From Bacteroidia bacterium (GTDB lineage: Bacteria; Bacteroidota; Bacteroidia; UKL13-3), in NCBI GenBank assembly GCA_051861545.1, contig JBIMKP010000007.1, positions 5,206 to 69,205 of the forward strand: 64,000 nucleotides of DNA, in the 5' to 3' direction. The notes under the pieces were generated by a model. The model had not been told where the DNA came from. It saw only the letters and a program-made list of their open reading frames with translations, and ran no database searches. Below, piece after piece: positions 7,772-28,819 of this stretch. Numbering within the stretch: the first letter of the stretch is position 1; the number at the start of each line of letters is the position of its first letter. The position numbers and the translations under genes are program-made.

Positions 7772-8431
7772 ATGATTAGTCCCTGGAAAATTTTATCGGT
7801 TGTACTCATTTTATACGCCCTAATTGGTGGTTTGTTGATGCCAGTTCCTGAATTACCGATTCTTGAACAAAGTATCAGAAATTTGTATTACCACGTACCA
7901 ATGTGGTTTTCAATGGTTTTATTGTTGTTAGCTTCTGCAGTTCATGCTGTTAAAGTGCTAGGAGGCAAGGGTTTAGAAGCTGATGTCAAATCAAACATTT
8001 TTGCAACTGTAGGAATGTTATATGGCACAATTGGAATTGTTACCGGAATGATTTGGGCAAAAAACACTTGGGGTGCTTATTGGGTATCCGACCCTAAATT
8101 AAACTCCGCAGCTATCGGAATGCTTATGTATTCAGCCTATTTCGTTTTAAGAGGTTCATTTGAAGACGAAGAAAAAAAGGCCAGATATGCTGCCATTTAT
8201 AATTTATTCTGTTTTCCTGTTTTTGTTGTGTTGATATTTGTAATTCCTCGTTTAACAGATTCATTACATCCTGGTAATGGAGGAAATCCTGGGTTTAATC
8301 AATATGACTTAGATAGCAGATTAAGAATGGTATTTTATCCTGCCGTTATAGGTTGGGTTTTAATGGGCTTCTGGATTGCCAATTTAGGTATCAGAGTAAA
8401 ATTATTGGAATTAAAAAAGTGGTTAGATTAA
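7772..8431 (+). CDS. ccmC: Cytochrome c maturation heme exporter subunit CcmC
   Basis: Polytopic membrane protein with the tryptophan-rich WD motif WGAYWVSDPKLN (WGxxWxWD-type). Followed by ccmD-like, ccmE and ccmF. Confidence 0.7.
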   Translation: MISPWKILSVVLILYALIGGLLMPVPELPILEQSIRNLYYHVPMWFSMVLLLLASAVHAVKVLGGKGLEADVKSNIFATVGMLYGTIGIVTGMIWAKNTWGAYWVSDPKLNSAAIGMLMYSAYFVLRGSFEDEEKKARYAAIYNLFCFPVFVVLIFVIPRLTDSLHPGNGGNPGFNQYDLDSRLRMVFYPAVIGWVLMGFWIANLGIRVKLLELKKWLD

Positions 8432-8444
8432 TAAAGTTAAGTAC

Positions 8445-8615
8445 ATGAAAAATATATTGTTTAATCAAATAACAAAAAGTGCAGAACAGCCTGATTTAGT
8501 AGGAACTGGAAAGTTTTATGTAGTTGTAGGTGTAATTGCAGTTTTGTTTTTAGGTATTGTAAGTTATATGGTAAGTCTAGATTTAAAAATTAAAAAATTA
8601 GAGAAAAAAGACTAG
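8445..8615 (+). CDS. Small single-TM protein, CcmD-like
   Basis: 56-aa ORF not in the supplied track (below 60 aa), sitting between ccmC and ccmE. One TM helix (FYVVVGVIAVLFLGIVSYMV). Start overlaps the ccmC stop region and stop abuts the ccmE start. Confidence 0.4.
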   Translation: MKNILFNQITKSAEQPDLVGTGKFYVVVGVIAVLFLGIVSYMVSLDLKIKKLEKKD

Positions 8616-8617
8616 TT

Positions 8618-9001
8618 ATGAAAAAGACTTATATATTAGGTATTGCTTTAATTGGTATTGCAATTGCTGCCATTGTTAGTATGTATGGCGATGCTAGCAC
8701 TTATGAAAATTTTGAAGTTGCTATGGAAAATCCGGGTAGAGAATTTCATGTGGTTGGGGTATTAAATAGAGAAAAAGAGAAGTTTTATAATCCACAGGAA
8801 GATCCAAATTATTTTACTTTTTTTATGGTTGATGAAAAGGGCAAGGAAAGCAAAGTTGTTTACCACAATCCAGAGCCAGCCGACTTCGACCGATCTGAAA
8901 AAATTGTAATTGTAGGAAAGATGGATGGAGATCATTTTGAAGCTTCAAAAATTCTATTAAAATGTCCGAGTAAATACACCGATAACCAGGTGAAAACTTA
9001 A
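8618..9001 (+). CDS. ccmE: Cytochrome c maturation heme chaperone CcmE, CxxxY variant
   Basis: N-terminal TM anchor plus OB-fold. FTFFMVDEKGKESKVVY...IVIVGKMDGDHFEASKILLKCPSKY aligns with E. coli CcmE ...HILAKEVLAKHDENY. The heme-binding His is replaced by Cys (KCPSKY). Confidence 0.65.
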   Translation: MKKTYILGIALIGIAIAAIVSMYGDASTYENFEVAMENPGREFHVVGVLNREKEKFYNPQEDPNYFTFFMVDEKGKESKVVYHNPEPADFDRSEKIVIVGKMDGDHFEASKILLKCPSKYTDNQVKT

Positions 9002-9025
9002 GGAAATTAACATAAATCTATTTAA

Positions 9026-9054
9026 AAGCTGCTCAAGAATGTGCAGCTTTTTTT
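9026..9054. terminator. Bidirectional rho-independent terminator after ccmE
   Basis: Hairpin aagctgc-tcaagaatgt-gcagctt followed by an 8-nt T-run. The complementary strand also reads stem plus TTTT, serving the convergent small gene. Confidence 0.6.
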
Positions 9055-9076
9055 GTGGCTTTGATTTTTATTTCTT

Positions 9077-9328
9077 TCAAAAAGTTAACTTACTAGAACT
9101 GCTGGAAAAGGTTCTACTTTCATTAATTACATTGATGATTTCCTCAGCTGATTCATTTGAATCCCATGCTCCATATGACTCAAAAAATGAAGACTTTTTT
9201 TCTGTAATGTCAGTCTTTACTGATTGTGTAAGCTTTGAGATAAGGTCAAGTTTATTACTTGGACTAAGATTATCTAACATTTTTAAATAACCATCAATTA
9301 AGGTCGTATTTATGTCTATAGCTTTCAT
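9077..9328 (-). CDS. Hypothetical small acidic protein
   Basis: 83-aa ORF convergent with ccmE and ending at the bidirectional terminator. Protein-like composition (..FFESYGAWDSNESAEEIINVINESR..). The overlapping + strand ORF 9039-9290 is low-complexity and unlikely. Confidence 0.4.
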   Translation of the reverse strand: MKAIDINTTLIDGYLKMLDNLSPSNKLDLISKLTQSVKTDITEKKSSFFESYGAWDSNESAEEIINVINESRTFSSSSSKLTF

Positions 9329-9544
9329 TTAGTTCAAGTTAATTAACAAACAAATATAATAAAAAGAGTCAAGCTGTTTAGTTATCAATGCTTTGAATAA
9401 ATCAAGCATTAACTAAGAAAATCTCATTTTGGTATTTAAAAAATGAGATTAATATCCCTTTTGAATAAATAAATTCAACTCCGAGGAAATTTCAAATAAT
9501 TCAAAAGTTTAAGTTTTTTAATTGAACCAATATTTTAAGAATTC

Positions 9545-9946
9545 GAATACCGCAAATTTACCAGTTGAAAAAATATTAGGATAGCTGATCCTAGTATTAT
9601 TCTTGTCTTAAACTAATTCAAAAGTTGCATGTTATTTTGCTTCAATATTGAACTTTGAACAAACAAAAATTATATTTAAACTGCGTAAAAACCCCGTTAG
9701 GTGGTTTAACATTGGTAGTATTAAAATCGTTTGAACGTCCTACGCAACGCCCTCTCTTCCGCGGACCGAAGGTCCGCGGAAGAGAGGGCGTTGCGGGTGT
9801 GTTTATTCATTTATGTTCTACCAGTGTTATGTACCTGACGGCACAAAAGATTTTAGTAAAATGAAAGTTCAATTTTAAAAAGAAAGAATTAAAAATTCCC
9901 TTAATCCCAAGAAGAAAACTTTTTTTAGGAAAAGAAGCGGATAGTC
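9545..9946. mobile_element. MITE-like intergenic repeat, copy 2 (diverged)
   Basis: Left end gaataccgcaaatttaccag and right end gaagcggatagtc match the TIR region of the other copies. Conserved ccccg.taggtggt block. Perfect 53-bp palindrome at 9743-9795. Confidence 0.6.
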
Positions 9947-10066
9947 GTATTTAATAATAAAGAAAATGTATTCACTCATTTTCACTTCAAACTGGCTTCT
10001 CTCTAATTTCATTATTCACTCAGTCATACTTTCAAATTTTACACATAGAAAAGTACTGCTTATTCA

Positions 10067-10074
10067 TACCTTTG
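10067..10074 (+). promoter_or_regulatory. Bacteroidetes sigma-A -7 box (TAnnTTTG) for ccmF
   Basis: tacctttg lies 7 nt upstream of the ccmF ATG. The same TTTGCGG context occurs at the rplU promoter. Confidence 0.35.
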
Positions 10075-10081
10075 CGGCCAA

Positions 10082-12484
10082 ATGAATGAAGTAGTTTTTT
10101 TAAACGAACACCTCTTTTGGGGTAATTTAGGCCACAGCGCCGTTGTAATCTCTTTTGTTACATCTATTCTGGCAGCCATTTCTTACTTTTTTGCCGAGTC
10201 GAAACCTTTAGATAAAAGTTGGGAAACCTTAGCTAAATGGTCGTTTCACCTCCATAGTTTGGCTGTTTTAACCATTATTGGGACTTTATTTAATATTATT
10301 TACCAGCATTATTTCGAATACCATTATGCATGGCAGCACAGTAGCCGCGATTTGCCTGTGCATTTCATGATTTCATGTTTCTGGGAAGGGCAGGAGGGAA
10401 GTTTCCTTCTTTGGATTTTCTGGCAAATGGTAATCGGACAGATTTTACTTAGAACCGCTAAAACCTGGTTAAATCCTACAATGGCGGTATTAATGCTCTC
10501 TCAAATTGCGCTTACTAGCATGTTACTTGGTGTAAAAATTCTAGGTTATAAATTGGGAAGTAGTCCTTTTGAATTGCTTAGAAACGTAATGCAAGATGCT
10601 CCAATTTTTAAACAAGCCGATTATTTAAGCAAAGTAAAAGATGGTAATGGTTTAAATCCTTTGCTTCAAAATTATTGGATGGTAATACACCCACCAACTT
10701 TGTTCTTTGGTTTTGCTACTACTGTTGTTCCTTTTGCTTACGGAATTGCTTCATTGTGGCGTAAAGACCATTCAGGTTGGTTAAAACCTGCTTTACCTTG
10801 GGCTTTAATAAGTGTAATGGTATTGGGTGCTGGAATTATTATGGGTGGTTTTTGGGCTTATGAAAGTTTAAGTTTTGGCGGTTATTGGGCTTGGGATCCA
10901 GTTGAAAATGCTTCTCTAGTGCCTTGGTTGATTTTAATTGCGGGTGTGCATGTACTCATCATTCATAAAACAACAGGAAACTCATATATAGTCGCACTAA
11001 CATTAATTCTTGCTACATTTTTATTGGTTTTATATGCTACTTTTTTAACCCGTTCAGGCATTTTAGGCAATTCTTCAGTTCACTCATTTACCGATTTAGG
11101 AATGAGTGGTCAGTTATTGGTATTCCTTTTGGTATTCGTGATTTTGTCTATCGGTTTGATGGTTTGGAGATGGAAATCATTACCTCGCTCGGCTAAAGAT
11201 GAAGATATTTTTACTCGTGAGTTCTGGATGTTTATTGGTAGTTTGTTGCTAGTAATTTCAGCCTTTCAGGTTACATTAACAACTTCAATCCCAGTTTTTA
11301 ATAAAGTGTTTTCTGCTAATTTAGCTCCACCTGCCGATGTAATTGGTCATTATAACAAATGGCAAATGCCATTAGCCGTTTTGGTTGCTATTTTAACTGC
11401 TGTTGCACAATTGTTAAAATACAAAACCAATCAGAAAGTTGCCTTAAGAAAAATAGGTATTTATGCTGCTATATCTCTTGTTTTAAGTATTCTTTTATTC
11501 TTTGGTTTTCAGTTGAAGAATTGGGCTTATTTCTTGTTGTTATTTGCTGGAAATTATGCAGTTGTAGTCAATTCTATTTTATTGGCACCTTATTTCAGAG
11601 GCAAAATTAAACTAGCTGGTGCAAGTGTTGCTCATATTGGTTTTGGTGTTCTTTTATTAGGAGTTTTGGTTTCATCAGCTAATAAGAAAGTAATTTCTAT
11701 TAATGAGACTGGACAAGCTTTAAACCCTGAATTCAGTAACAAAGAAAATGTAGAAAATATATTTCTTGAAAGAGGAAAAGCCAATAAAATGGGTGATTAT
11801 ATTATCACCTATAAAAAAGATTCACAACATTGGGTAAATACTTACTACCAAGTAAATTACCAAAAATTGAACTCAAAAGATGAGGTTGATTATGAGTTCG
11901 ATTTATATCCAAATGGACAAATTAATCCTAAATTCGGTTTGGTTGCTAATCCAGATACCAAACATTATTTAAGTCATGATGTATTTACCTACGTAAGTTC
12001 GGTTCCATCACAAAAAGCCGACCCTAAATTTGTGAATACAAAAACACATTCAGTAAAACCAGGAGATACTATTTATACCAATAATGCTTGGATTGTTTTA
12101 GTAGGAGTAAATACCAATGCTGATGCTGAAAATTTAGATGTTAAAAATTTACAAGTATTGTTAGGAGCTGAATTAAAGGTTCATACATTAGATAAAGTCT
12201 ACGATGCCATGCCAATGTATGGTGTACAAAATAATCAGGCTATTAGTTATGATGCTTTGGTTGATGAAGCTAAATTAAAATTTAGTTTCAAAGGAGTAGA
12301 TCCTGCAAAAGGAAGTATTACTATTGAAACTTCAGAAAAAGACCAAAGTGGTGAATTTATAATTATGAAAGCTATTGTATTTCCTTGGATTAATTTGGTT
12401 TGGGCAGGAACCATTATTATGATTATTGGCTTTTTTATAGCTATCATAAGAAGAATTCAAGAATATAGAAGAGTTGTTGCATAA
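10082..12484 (+). CDS. ccmF: Cytochrome c-type biogenesis heme lyase CcmF
   Basis: 800-aa polytopic membrane protein with the WWD motif GGYWAWDPVENASLVPWL. Confidence 0.8.
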   Translation: MNEVVFLNEHLFWGNLGHSAVVISFVTSILAAISYFFAESKPLDKSWETLAKWSFHLHSLAVLTIIGTLFNIIYQHYFEYHYAWQHSSRDLPVHFMISCFWEGQEGSFLLWIFWQMVIGQILLRTAKTWLNPTMAVLMLSQIALTSMLLGVKILGYKLGSSPFELLRNVMQDAPIFKQADYLSKVKDGNGLNPLLQNYWMVIHPPTLFFGFATTVVPFAYGIASLWRKDHSGWLKPALPWALISVMVLGAGIIMGGFWAYESLSFGGYWAWDPVENASLVPWLILIAGVHVLIIHKTTGNSYIVALTLILATFLLVLYATFLTRSGILGNSSVHSFTDLGMSGQLLVFLLVFVILSIGLMVWRWKSLPRSAKDEDIFTREFWMFIGSLLLVISAFQVTLTTSIPVFNKVFSANLAPPADVIGHYNKWQMPLAVLVAILTAVAQLLKYKTNQKVALRKIGIYAAISLVLSILLFFGFQLKNWAYFLLLFAGNYAVVVNSILLAPYFRGKIKLAGASVAHIGFGVLLLGVLVSSANKKVISINETGQALNPEFSNKENVENIFLERGKANKMGDYIITYKKDSQHWVNTYYQVNYQKLNSKDEVDYEFDLYPNGQINPKFGLVANPDTKHYLSHDVFTYVSSVPSQKADPKFVNTKTHSVKPGDTIYTNNAWIVLVGVNTNADAENLDVKNLQVLLGAELKVHTLDKVYDAMPMYGVQNNQAISYDALVDEAKLKFSFKGVDPAKGSITIETSEKDQSGEFIIMKAIVFPWINLVWAGTIIMIIGFFIAIIRRIQEYRRVVA

Positions 12485-15917: not shown

Positions 15918-16919
15918 TTACTTTTTCAATCTCCAGATATTTCCATTTTTTGTTTGAAAAACCTGCAATTTCCCTTCTTTACTTAATTGATTCAGAATCT
16001 CCAATCCCTTATTTGTATTGACTTCACTCAATTCACAAAACTCTTTTAATGTTAAAGATGAAAACATGGTGAATAATGATTTCCAATCTTTGTTATACTT
16101 CTGTTTGATTGCATTTGGATTCAAGCTAATTATGATATTTTCAAATGCTGTATAAGGTTTAAATCCATTTATGTACTGGAAGTTTTTAGTTTGATTTGAA
16201 ATTATCAATGTTGGAAAGCCGCGAACGCCTGTCTCAGCAGTAATTTTAAGGTCGTTTTGAAACAACTCATTTGCTATGTTTTCTGAATCTTTTTTTAGTT
16301 TGATTGCATCCAATCCAACTTCTTTTGCTGCTGAACTCAAATAAGTCCAATTACAAATATTTTTCTTTTCTAGAAATACCATTTCTCTAATTCTTCTTAG
16401 AAATAACAATGCCTTCTCTTCATCTTGTAGTTGAGCAGCTTTAAATGCAATTGAAGGAGGATAAGACGATGGAAGTGGATCTTCTAACCAAATATCACCA
16501 TCAATTGGCATTTGGTAATATTGGCTAACTTCATCCCAATGGTGTGATACATCAGAAGGTTTACTAATGCCACCACTATTGTATGACCAGTCTTTTAGTA
16601 AACCACCCATTCTGTATTCAATAGAAAAATAGTCTCCATATTCTAATTTCAGTTTTCTTAACTGTGCTTCAATTCCCCAACAAGATGAACAAATTGGGTC
16701 GGTGAAATAAAAAATATGAATTGATTTATTGCTTTGTTTTGGTACGATATCAATTTGTTGTATTGTTGAATCTGCAATTTCACAGGTTCCTGAATCGGTA
16801 TTGCATAAAAGTGGATTATTGCTTTTTTCTTGATGTTGCATGTTTTTGGTTTGTGCATCACATGCAGTTGTTGTAAGTAAAATTAAGAAACTACAAATTA
16901 GTGTGATGCGTATTTTCAT
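15918..16919 (-). CDS. DsbA-like thioredoxin-fold oxidoreductase (secreted)
   Basis: CSSCW active-site motif (FYFTDPICSSCWGIEAQ). The signal peptide starts at MKIRITLICSF. The ORF extends to 16970. Confidence 0.55.
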   Translation of the reverse strand: MKIRITLICSFLILLTTTACDAQTKNMQHQEKSNNPLLCNTDSGTCEIADSTIQQIDIVPKQSNKSIHIFYFTDPICSSCWGIEAQLRKLKLEYGDYFSIEYRMGGLLKDWSYNSGGISKPSDVSHHWDEVSQYYQMPIDGDIWLEDPLPSSYPPSIAFKAAQLQDEEKALLFLRRIREMVFLEKKNICNWTYLSSAAKEVGLDAIKLKKDSENIANELFQNDLKITAETGVRGFPTLIISNQTKNFQYINGFKPYTAFENIIISLNPNAIKQKYNKDWKSLFTMFSSLTLKEFCELSEVNTNKGLEILNQLSKEGKLQVFQTKNGNIWRLKK

Positions 16920-16999
16920 TTTATATTTGGATTCGAAAACAAACATCCGATTAATTATACTACCAATCAATTAGTCAGAAAAACCTGACCTCAAAAAAA

Positions 17000-26546: not shown

Positions 26547-26852
26547 ATGGAAGATATCAGCGTATCAGAGTTAAAAGAAAGAATGGATAAAGGTGAAAAA
26601 CTACATGTTTATGATGTAAGAGAATTACATGAATATGAGGAGTTTAATATTGGTGCAAATCATATTCCTTTAGGCGAATTGCCTAGTAGAACTGCTGATT
26701 TAGAAGCTTTGAAAAATGAAGAAATTATTCTTCATTGCAGAAGTGGAGCAAGAAGTGGAAATGCAAAAATGTATTTAGAAGGATTGGGTTTTACTAAAGT
26801 GAGAAACTTGCTAGGTGGAATGTTAGCTTGGCAAGATAAATTTGGTGCTTAG
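26547..26852 (+). CDS. Rhodanese-like single-domain sulfurtransferase
   Basis: Active-site loop HCRSGARSG. 101 aa. Confidence 0.75.
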   Translation: MEDISVSELKERMDKGEKLHVYDVRELHEYEEFNIGANHIPLGELPSRTADLEALKNEEIILHCRSGARSGNAKMYLEGLGFTKVRNLLGGMLAWQDKFGA

Positions 26853-26857
26853 TTTTC

Positions 26858-28819
26858 ATGTTTGAATCAAAAAGAATTCTATTTAAAAATGGATGGCTGA
26901 AATTAATTTTTTGGCCATTTGTTTTTATAATGATTTTAGAATCGGTTTTTTGCAATGAGCCTTCAACTAAAACTACTGAATTCCTCAATCATGATACCAC
27001 CGTTCATTATGTTGGAATTGAAGCATGCCGCTCTTGTCATACAGATATTTATAATAGTTTTATTCAAACGGGCATGGGGCAATCATTTGCTCCAGCTACC
27101 CACACAAAATCTTCTGCAAAATTCAATCACCAAAAGCCAGTATTTGATAAAAAACTAGGCTTATATTATTTGCCAATATGGATTGGCGATTCTCTTTATA
27201 TCAAAGAATTTGGCTTAGAAGGTAAGGATACAATTCATCAAAGAATTGAGAGAGTTGATTATATAATTGGTTCAGGACAACATACCAATTCACATATAGC
27301 TATCAGAAATGGATATGTATTTCAATTGCCTTTAACTTGGTATGCACAAAAACAGCAATGGGATTTACCTCCAGGATTCGAAAACGGACGAAATGTGCGT
27401 TTTTCAAGAGAAGTTGGTATGGAATGTATGAGTTGTCATAATGCCATGCCTAAGGCCGATGAATCTGCCATAAACAAGTTTATTTCCATTCCCAATGGTA
27501 TTGATTGTGAAAGATGCCATGGGCCAGGAGAATTACATGTAAAAGAAAAATTGGCTGGTAATATTGTTGATACAAGTAAATATGCTGATTATACTATTGT
27601 TAATCCTAAAAGATTAAGTTGGGAGCGCCAAACGGATTTATGTCAGCGCTGTCATTTACAAGGAAATGCTGTTTTAAAACCAGGAAAAGGTTTTGGCGAT
27701 TTTAGACCTGGTATGAAATTGGCCGATTACTACAATGTTTTTATGCCCAAGTTTAAAGGTGCAGAAAACGAGTTTATCATGGCTTCTCATGCGCAGCGTT
27801 TACAGGAGAGTAAGTGTTTTGTTCAATCAAATAAAAACATGGAGTTAAATGCGGTAAATACGGGGATGAATTTAACTTGTATTAATTGCCACAATCCACA
27901 TGTGAGCGTGAAGTTTACTGGTAAGCAAATCTTCAACAATGCATGTATGAAATGTCATGATTCAAAAGCATGTAAAGAAATTCCAGAAAATAGAAGAGCC
28001 ATTAATGATAATTGTGTTAGTTGTCACATGCCTAAAAGCGGAACTGTGGATATTCCTCACGTTACAGTTCACGACCATAAAATTAGGATACCAACTAAAG
28101 CAAACGAAGTTAAATCTATAAAAGAATTTGCTGGTTTGTATTGTGTTACCAAAGGAAACCTTACCGAATTAGACCAAGCACAGGCCTTTTTAAATTACCA
28201 AGAAAAATTTGAAGGTGACTCGAAAATTTCATTTGATTCAGCATCCTTTTTTATACAAAAACTAACAGGAACTGAATCTTATTCAGCATTACAGATACAT
28301 TATGCATTCCTGCAAAAAGATGATTTAGGAGTGTTAAAAATAGCATCAAATATAGACTCCAAACTTATTCAAGATTTTTGGATGGCATACCGAATTGGAC
28401 AATCTGCTTTTAATATACAAGATTATACAAAGGCTGAAATTTGGTTAAGAAGAGCCTGTGAAATAGCGCCCAATAATTTAAAGTTCAAAAACAAACTAAT
28501 GTTGGCTTGTTTAATGAATGGTAAAATAGAAGAGGCAATTCGAATACAAGAAAACTCTCTTTCAATTTATCCAAATCAAGAAGATGTTTGGTCGAATTTA
28601 GGCTTTGCTTATGCCAATTTACAGCAATATGAAAAAGCGCTTGAGTGTTATAACAAGGAGTTGAAATTATTTCCATATCATCAACAAGCATTAATAAACA
28701 GAGCAGGTGTTTTTCATTTATTAGGAAAAGATGATTTGGCCATTAAGGATTTAAAATTGGTTTTAAAAATCAATCCAAATGAAAGCAAAGTGAAAGAAAT
28801 GTTAGCTGCCTTAAAGTAG
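26858..28819 (+). CDS. Heptaheme cytochrome c fused to C-terminal TPR repeats
   Basis: Seven CxxCH motifs: CRSCH, CMSCH, CERCH, CQRCH, CINCH, CMKCH, CVSCH. N-terminal TM/signal. C-terminal ~200 aa is TPR-like (..AYANLQQYEKALECYNKELKLFPYHQQALINRAGVF..). Confidence 0.75.
   Translation: MFESKRILFKNGWLKLIFWPFVFIMILESVFCNEPSTKTTEFLNHDTTVHYVGIEACRSCHTDIYNSFIQTGMGQSFAPATHTKSSAKFNHQKPVFDKKLGLYYLPIWIGDSLYIKEFGLEGKDTIHQRIERVDYIIGSGQHTNSHIAIRNGYVFQLPLTWYAQKQQWDLPPGFENGRNVRFSREVGMECMSCHNAMPKADESAINKFISIPNGIDCERCHGPGELHVKEKLAGNIVDTSKYADYTIVNPKRLSWERQTDLCQRCHLQGNAVLKPGKGFGDFRPGMKLADYYNVFMPKFKGAENEFIMASHAQRLQESKCFVQSNKNMELNAVNTGMNLTCINCHNPHVSVKFTGKQIFNNACMKCHDSKACKEIPENRRAINDNCVSCHMPKSGTVDIPHVTVHDHKIRIPTKANEVKSIKEFAGLYCVTKGNLTELDQAQAFLNYQEKFEGDSKISFDSASFFIQKLTGTESYSALQIHYAFLQKDDLGVLKIASNIDSKLIQDFWMAYRIGQSAFNIQDYTKAEIWLRRACEIAPNNLKFKNKLMLACLMNGKIEEAIRIQENSLSIYPNQEDVWSNLGFAYANLQQYEKALECYNKELKLFPYHQQALINRAGVFHLLGKDDLAIKDLKLVLKINPNESKVKEMLAALK

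Follow-up and report, generated by a model that had tools for sequence, protein, structure and literature searches.

The heme chaperone CcmE of E. coli binds heme through His130, which lies in the motif LAKHDENY and is followed at position +4 by Tyr134. In 2006, Allen et al. reportedly described a form of the protein with Cys in place of this His, a variant that was given the name System I*. E. coli requires CcmG and CcmH; in System I* these two are often missing, without this being strictly defining (about one third of the bacterial cases have CcmH). CcmA and CcmB release holo-CcmE in E. coli and are required for the formation of holo-CcmE in M. acetivorans.

The majority motif of System I* CcmE proteins is CPSKY; Cys takes the place of His130 in the alignment and is followed at +4 by Tyr or Phe (PMC3601427). 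When expressed in E. coli, the Desulfovibrio operon makes holocytochromes c, and its Cys-CcmE carries covalently bound heme (PMC3601427). In M. acetivorans, the C120A substitution abolishes holo-CcmE and all holocytochromes c and C120H destabilises CcmE, and the H130C variant of E. coli CcmE binds heme that cannot be transferred (PMC9084895). For D. vulgaris CcmE, one publication reports ferric heme bound non-covalently through Cys (C127; PMC3884852).

The locus analysed here lies in a 64-kb stretch of DNA from a Bacteroidia bacterium, referred to below as the window, and holds the genes ccmC-ccmD-ccmE-ccmF in this order. The first, ccmC (7772..8431, + strand; Pfam Cytochrom_C_asm, 73.8 bits), encodes the membrane protein that handles heme and loads CcmE with it. 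It scores 75.2 bits against TIGR01191 ccmC, under the cut-off of 186. A Trp-rich motif, WGAYWVSDP, lies at residue 100 of the protein, and His41 and His166 may serve as its periplasmic heme ligands. The next gene, ccmD (8445..8615, + strand), encodes a small single-pass membrane protein that belongs to CcmD_alt (PF20077; 42.6 bits, cut-off 23.5), and a gap of 2 bases separates its stop codon from the ATG of ccmE. The last gene, ccmF (10082..12484, + strand), encodes an 800-aa heme lyase (Cytochrom_C_asm 89.3 bits, CcmF_C 39 bits) that matches T. thermophilus CcmF (6ZMQ) with an E-value of 3.3e-37 across residues 14-495. Its WWD motif reads WAWDP at 269, and His203, His290 and His334 lie opposite His in 6ZMQ; the C-terminal periplasmic region is longer in this 800-aa protein than in T. 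thermophilus CcmF (660-residue chain).

With the CcmE* of D. desulfuricans and D. vulgaris (2KCT), the protein shares Cys at the His130 position, the sequence K-C-P(-S-K-Y) and a short C-terminal tail. The OB fold is also common to it and D. vulgaris 2KCT (target-normalised TM-score 0.70, rmsd 2.2 A), as are, for Desulfovibrio, a CcmD encoded alongside and a gene cluster without CcmH or CcmG. It differs from Desulfovibrio in belonging to another phylum, with about 22% identity, and in its CcmD_alt-type CcmD (PF20077), its CcmF of about 800 aa and the lack of adjacent ccmA and ccmB in the window. The CXXXY motif and, as far as the window and the conserved neighbours show, the absence of CcmH are shared with M. 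acetivorans (C120 in its CcmE), whereas archaea have no CcmD and the cluster here encodes CcmD_alt. The His-type proteins of E. coli (1SR3, 8CE8 chain E) and Shewanella (1LM0/1J6Q) have the Pfam family, the membrane anchor with OB barrel and the Tyr at +4 in common with it, and the neighbours CcmC, CcmD and CcmF accompany canonical CcmE as well. However, E. coli has His130 (LAKHDENY) where this protein has Cys116 (LLKCPSKY), and the E. coli chain (8CE8_E) runs to 159 residues, 25 of them past Tyr134, as opposed to 127 residues with 7 past Tyr120 here.

The CcmE reading frame and its motif

The ccmE reading frame (8618..9001, + strand) starts with ATG and encodes 127 aa, laid out as an N-terminal membrane anchor, an OB barrel and a C-terminal KCPSKY. 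Its translation ends in ...SKILLKCPSKYTDNQVKT, a C terminus otherwise given as ...ASKILLKCPSKYTDNQVKT. The codons of the heme-binding motif C116-P-S-K-Y120 occupy 8963..8977 on the same strand, with TGT (8963-8965) for C116 and TAC (8975-8977) for Y120. C116 is the sole Cys of the protein, and His occurs at positions 44, 83 and 106. An earlier note on this DNA had called the product a CcmE heme chaperone, and the Pfam CcmE family (PF03100) bears this out: the score is 45.7 bits (E 9e-12), where the gathering cut-off is 24.6, and the match runs from residue 37 to 122 of the protein and from position 16 to 98 of the 99-position profile.

Against the NCBIfam CcmE equivalogs (PRK13254/PRK13159), which are built on proteobacterial His-type proteins, the protein scores only 12-30 bits (cut-offs 126-247), so that the Bacteroidota clade is distant from the characterised CcmE proteins. 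It thus has neither the HxxxY motif nor the equivalog-level score of a canonical His-type CcmE, and the low scores count against reading it as a working chaperone of this family. For family placement, a scan that returned sub-threshold CcmE equivalog matches only was of no help.

The position of the Cys was determined from alignments. HMMER pairwise alignment sets 'skillkCpskYt' over 'AKEVLAKHDENYT' of E. coli CcmE (1SR3_A, 8CE8_E), which places Cys116 opposite His130 and Tyr120 opposite Tyr134. Family profiles likewise put the Cys in the His130 column and align its K-C-P with the K-C-P of D. vulgaris CcmE (2KCT). Since a PDB search with the single CcmE sequence was too weak (E 0.13), significance was obtained with a profile of 111 diverse family members (A3), pre-selected for CPSKY. 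Its best sequence match in the PDB was the Cys-type D. vulgaris CcmE 2KCT (28.3 bits, E 1.4e-5), and the His-type CcmE proteins of E. coli and Shewanella received about 20 bits, with His in the C116 column. In the 111 sequences of A3, only G100 and C116-P-S-K-Y120 are invariant; His44, His83 and His106 all vary, leaving no conserved alternative His. The earlier note's claim that Cys replaces the heme-binding His in a CxxxY motif thus agrees with both the pairwise alignment and the family profiles, and no conserved His takes over the position. System I* is marked by a Cys aligned with His130 and a Tyr or Phe four residues on, and C116-P-S-K-Y120 falls within that variant. The link that the note had drawn to the CxxxY form of archaea and Desulfovibrio stands, CPSKY being the published majority motif of System I* (PMC3601427). 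At the level of sequence, we therefore regard it as confirmed that the ORF at 8618-9001 is a real CcmE with Cys substituting for the His that binds heme.

An AlphaFold2 model built on the A3 alignment (mean pLDDT 88.1) has a helix at residues 3-23, corresponding to the N-terminal membrane anchor, and an OB barrel of five main strands. The last of these comprises residues 106-115, and C116 follows directly, opening a low-confidence, disordered tail. Foldseek matched the model to the CcmE structures 1LM0, 1J6Q, 8CE8_E and 2KCT in the PDB, with target-normalised TM-scores of 0.68-0.70 (isolated domains) and rmsd of 2.2-3.0 A. Because generic OB folds such as RPA obtain similar scores, the fold is support for the CcmE assignment and not proof of it. 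The same searches returned a region of a nucleoporin: residues ~1558-1650 of PDB 9HCJ chain R0, in the C-terminal region of Dictyostelium discoideum Nup160, matched the CcmE profile (26.1 bits, E 7e-5) and also the fold of the CcmE model (Foldseek E 2.6e-3). This may reflect a CcmE-like OB domain where none would be expected, in a nucleoporin, or else OB folds that resemble each other by chance.

A candidate route for heme through Cys116

We consider it very probable that the product of the ORF is a working heme chaperone of the periplasm, anchored in the membrane and belonging to the Cys-type CcmE family, and hence the System I* variant of the Ccm pathway. This reading builds on what is observed at the locus: family membership, fold, the equivalence of the Cys and Tyr columns, strict conservation and gene context. 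In such a pathway, CcmC, aided by the small CcmD_alt, would present heme b to CcmE. Cys116, placed right after the last strand of the OB barrel, would attach a vinyl group of the heme, most likely by a thioether bond, and Tyr120 would ligate the heme iron. The resulting holo-CcmE would hand its heme to the lyase CcmF, which would join it to apocytochromes at their CXXCH motifs, one candidate being the seven-heme protein encoded at 26858-28819.

That Cys116 binds heme, that it does so covalently and that heme passes to CcmF without CcmH or CcmG would follow by analogy with D. desulfuricans and M. acetivorans. The thioether-type chemistry that the earlier note took the motif to imply has the same footing and may be expected here to the extent that these two organisms are a guide. 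A covalent bond is not certain, given the non-covalent binding described for D. vulgaris in PMC3884852. The main rival to a thioether-forming chaperone starts from that report: CcmE would have the same role, and Cys116 would do no more than ligate the heme iron non-covalently, as an axial thiolate, with no thioether intermediate. The D. vulgaris protein is the closest solved relative of the Bacteroidota CcmE family, and a thioether is chemically difficult to reverse (System I review, PMC3601427). However, covalent heme binding has been demonstrated for D. desulfuricans CcmE (PMC3601427), and heme-stained holo-CcmE of M. acetivorans depends on C120 (PMC9084895). The D. vulgaris construct, moreover, ends right after K-C-P and lacks S-K-Y, so it may misreport the in vivo state. 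Taking both sides together, we judge purely thiolate ligation to be unlikely, while giving it more weight than any other competing account, and we retain covalent attachment at Cys116 as the preferred reading.

Distribution in Bacteroidota and the origin of the motif

The exact CcmE protein is already public on at least 33 contigs across NCBI, JGI, ENA and Logan, with JGI naming it CcmE; for near-identical proteins (94-98% identity) the NCBI name is 'MAG: cytochrome c maturation protein CcmE [Bacteroidia bacterium]'. All 120 close homologs listed (65-100% identity) have LLKCPSKY, and the motif is present in 85 of the 86 loci examined, the exception being interrupted by a contig end. As A3 had been pre-selected for CPSKY, the unbiased tally of the motif comes from phmmer, run exhaustively against 1.84 billion cluster representatives, with 736 matches at E<=0.001. 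Among the best 150 of these 736 (representatives at 50% clustering), 133 have KCPSKY and none has His at the Cys position; the other 17 are truncated or frameshifted, or read QCPSKY or KCPSKI. The motif is kept in homologs down to about 31% identity. These similarity searches gave best-scoring matches only, all of them from the Bacteroidota-type clade, and within that range the survey of homologs is in line with the CxxxY form that the earlier note had read from its manual alignment. Chance, a sequencing error or a pseudogene as the source of the motif is ruled out by its conservation across the contigs (at least 33), the homologs and the representatives.

A scan of one genome per GTDB species, run with two search patterns, found a CcmE relative in at least 581 species-level genomes, nearly all of which carry a Bacteroidota label; the scan was biased towards the motif, since one of the two patterns included the Cys. 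In the genome loci kept, xxKCPSKY is present in 79 of 80, and the remaining one is interrupted by a contig end. The loci carry the labels Sphingobacteriales, Chitinophagales, Saprospiraceae, Flavobacteriales, Lentimicrobiaceae and Bacteroidales, with the cultured Pedobacter duraquae DSM 19034, Pedobacter sp., Albibacterium, Arcticibacter and Anseongella representing the Sphingobacteriales. The nearest relatives of the window among the matches listed are freshwater Bacteroidia MAGs (80-83% identity). Several records with a Bacteroidota-type ccm cluster bear other titles, 'uncultured Bifidobacteriaceae', 'Bifidobacterium sp.' or 'Burkholderiales' (L011, L019 and L031), and many further MAG records with the cluster are titled 'Chitinophaga pinensis'. 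Both sets of titles are probably automatic taxonomic mislabels.

Bacteroidetes are unnamed in the searchable System I* literature (to which the 2006 paper of Allen et al. does not belong), where archaea, delta-proteobacteria, Chloroflexi and Firmicutes are listed. The papers in eLife 2022, Scientifica 2013, Front Microbiol 2015 and AEM 2025 make no mention of them, and a literature search for CcmE with Bacteroidetes returned metagenomic surveys only. The earlier note had considered the motif taxonomically noteworthy in a Bacteroidetes cluster. This interest is not borne out, because Bacteroidota Ccm systems normally, and apparently exclusively, have the Cys form: it is the sole form found in the at least 581 species-level genomes, and the exact protein was already deposited as CcmE. 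The ccmE gene of the window is an ordinary, routine member of the variant that is already annotated publicly, and the silence of the literature on Bacteroidetes is a small gap and not a new mechanism.

The same data bear on where the Cys came from. If Bacteroidota had switched from His to Cys independently, so that their Cys converged on that of System I* without common inheritance, this would fit the identity of only about 22% to D. vulgaris CcmE and the absence of Bacteroidetes from the searchable System I* papers. However, most System I* CcmEs share the whole CPSKY pentapeptide and not the Cys alone (PMC3601427), with K-C-P also found in D. vulgaris. In the A3 profile search, the Cys-type 2KCT outscores the His-type proteins despite its shorter construct, and the tail past the Tyr is short (7 residues here, 25 past Tyr134 in E. 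coli CcmE). We therefore hold convergence to be improbable, somewhat more so than thiolate ligation, and treat the protein as a System I* CcmE.

Completeness and surroundings of the cluster

The order ccmC-ccmD_alt-ccmE-ccmF forms a conserved core, both in the metagenome contigs and in the 80 genome loci. Pedobacter duraquae has the genes in two parts, ccmC-ccmD and ccmE-ccmF, separated by two unrelated genes. CcmA, CcmB, CcmG and CcmH were not detectable in the 64-kb window by Pfam, motif scans and tblastn. More specifically, tblastn with a Bacteroidota CcmB query gave no match in the window, a scan for Walker A and signature motifs found no ABC ATPase there, and the only ORF in the window with an LRCxxC or thioredoxin-type CxxC motif was a DsbA-like Thioredoxin_5 protein (15918-16970). 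Precomputed Pfam annotation of the near-identical contigs has no match to CcmA, CcmB, CcmG or CcmH within +/-10 kb, and clustering of the 1153 ORFs from the 80 genome loci yielded no CcmH-like or CcmG-like cluster among the conserved neighbours. CcmB (PF03379, 32.4 bits) was found in 23 of the 80 loci, all from more distant relatives, which indicates that the phylum has CcmB; in 22 of these 23 it lies directly upstream of ccmC, and in Pedobacter duraquae it is 2.2 kb off.

The spacer between ccmE and ccmF (9002-10081) measures 1080 bp in the window, about 660 bp in the near-identical contigs L002 and L005, and about 150 bp in L001, L003, L004 and L006, a gradation that points to insertions at this site in two layers. 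An 83-aa ORF on the opposite strand (9077-9328, - strand), with no Pfam family (best E 0.15), is present in L002 and L005 and not in L001, L003, L004 and L006. A further stretch of about 400 bases is present in this window alone and missing from the close relatives. It contains a GC-rich perfect palindrome (9743-9795; arms CGCAACGCCCTCTCTTCCGCGGACC / GGTCCGCGGAAGAGAGGGCGTTGCG of 25 nt, with a 3-nt loop) that occurs once in the window and has a composition foreign to the 32% GC genome. Rfam gave no match near any gathering score in the spacer, palindrome included; the region may be a small mobile insert. Just past the ccmE stop, the hairpin AAAAGCTGC-(10 nt)-GCAGCTTTT followed by a T run (9024-9054) looks, from its sequence, like a bidirectional intrinsic terminator. 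With its 10-nt loop, it fell outside the automatic terminator scan, whose loop limit is 8 nt. Such a hairpin suggests separate transcription of ccmE and ccmF in this organism.

Two of these features, the lack of ccmA and ccmB in the 64-kb window and the 1080-bp gap with its opposite-strand ORF, are points against a functional System I* chaperone. If ccmE were a decaying or non-functional remnant and the cytochromes were matured by another system elsewhere in the genome, the missing genes and a spacer that has gained insertions would fit, but the identical CcmE on at least 33 contigs, the intact conserved reading frame with invariant functional residues across hundreds of species, and the intact CcmC and CcmF make this extremely unlikely.

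The window has a GC content of 32.4% and encodes one protein with a T9SS sorting tail. A c-type cytochrome of 653 aa with seven CXXCH motifs and TPR repeats, recognised by motif count and Pfam, is encoded at 26858..28819 (+ strand), with matches to the families Paired_CXXCH_1, Mtrc-MtrF_II-IV_dom, Cytochrome_C7 and TPR; it is a plausible, likely client of the ccm cluster. A rhodanese-domain gene (26547-26852) lies directly upstream of it. Elsewhere in the window, a Metallophos/5'-nucleotidase protein (1203-2915) has an RR-type signal motif and is SoxB-like, and genes for a SoxA/TsdA-type cytochrome, DsrE and a sulfur transporter lie just upstream in the related contig L002. Together, the rhodanese, the heptaheme cytochrome, the SoxB-like protein and the sulfur genes of L002 hint at the oxidation of sulfur compounds.

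For the protein family, Cys-type CcmE is far commoner than the "archaea and a few bacteria" of the literature, being apparently the sole form across a major phylum. This bears on annotation models, as the NCBIfam CcmE equivalogs miss the Bacteroidota clade, and on how a heme-thioether bond, which is normally stable, could be a transient intermediate. It is possible, and we propose it only tentatively, that those Bacteroidota that use Ccm use System I* exclusively, with a KCPSKY CcmE, a CcmD_alt, a CcmF of about 800 aa and a cluster without CcmH or CcmG. If so, Bacteroidota that are aerobic and genetically tractable, Pedobacter among them, would be convenient hosts in which to study the chemistry by which the heme-Cys bond is formed and broken.
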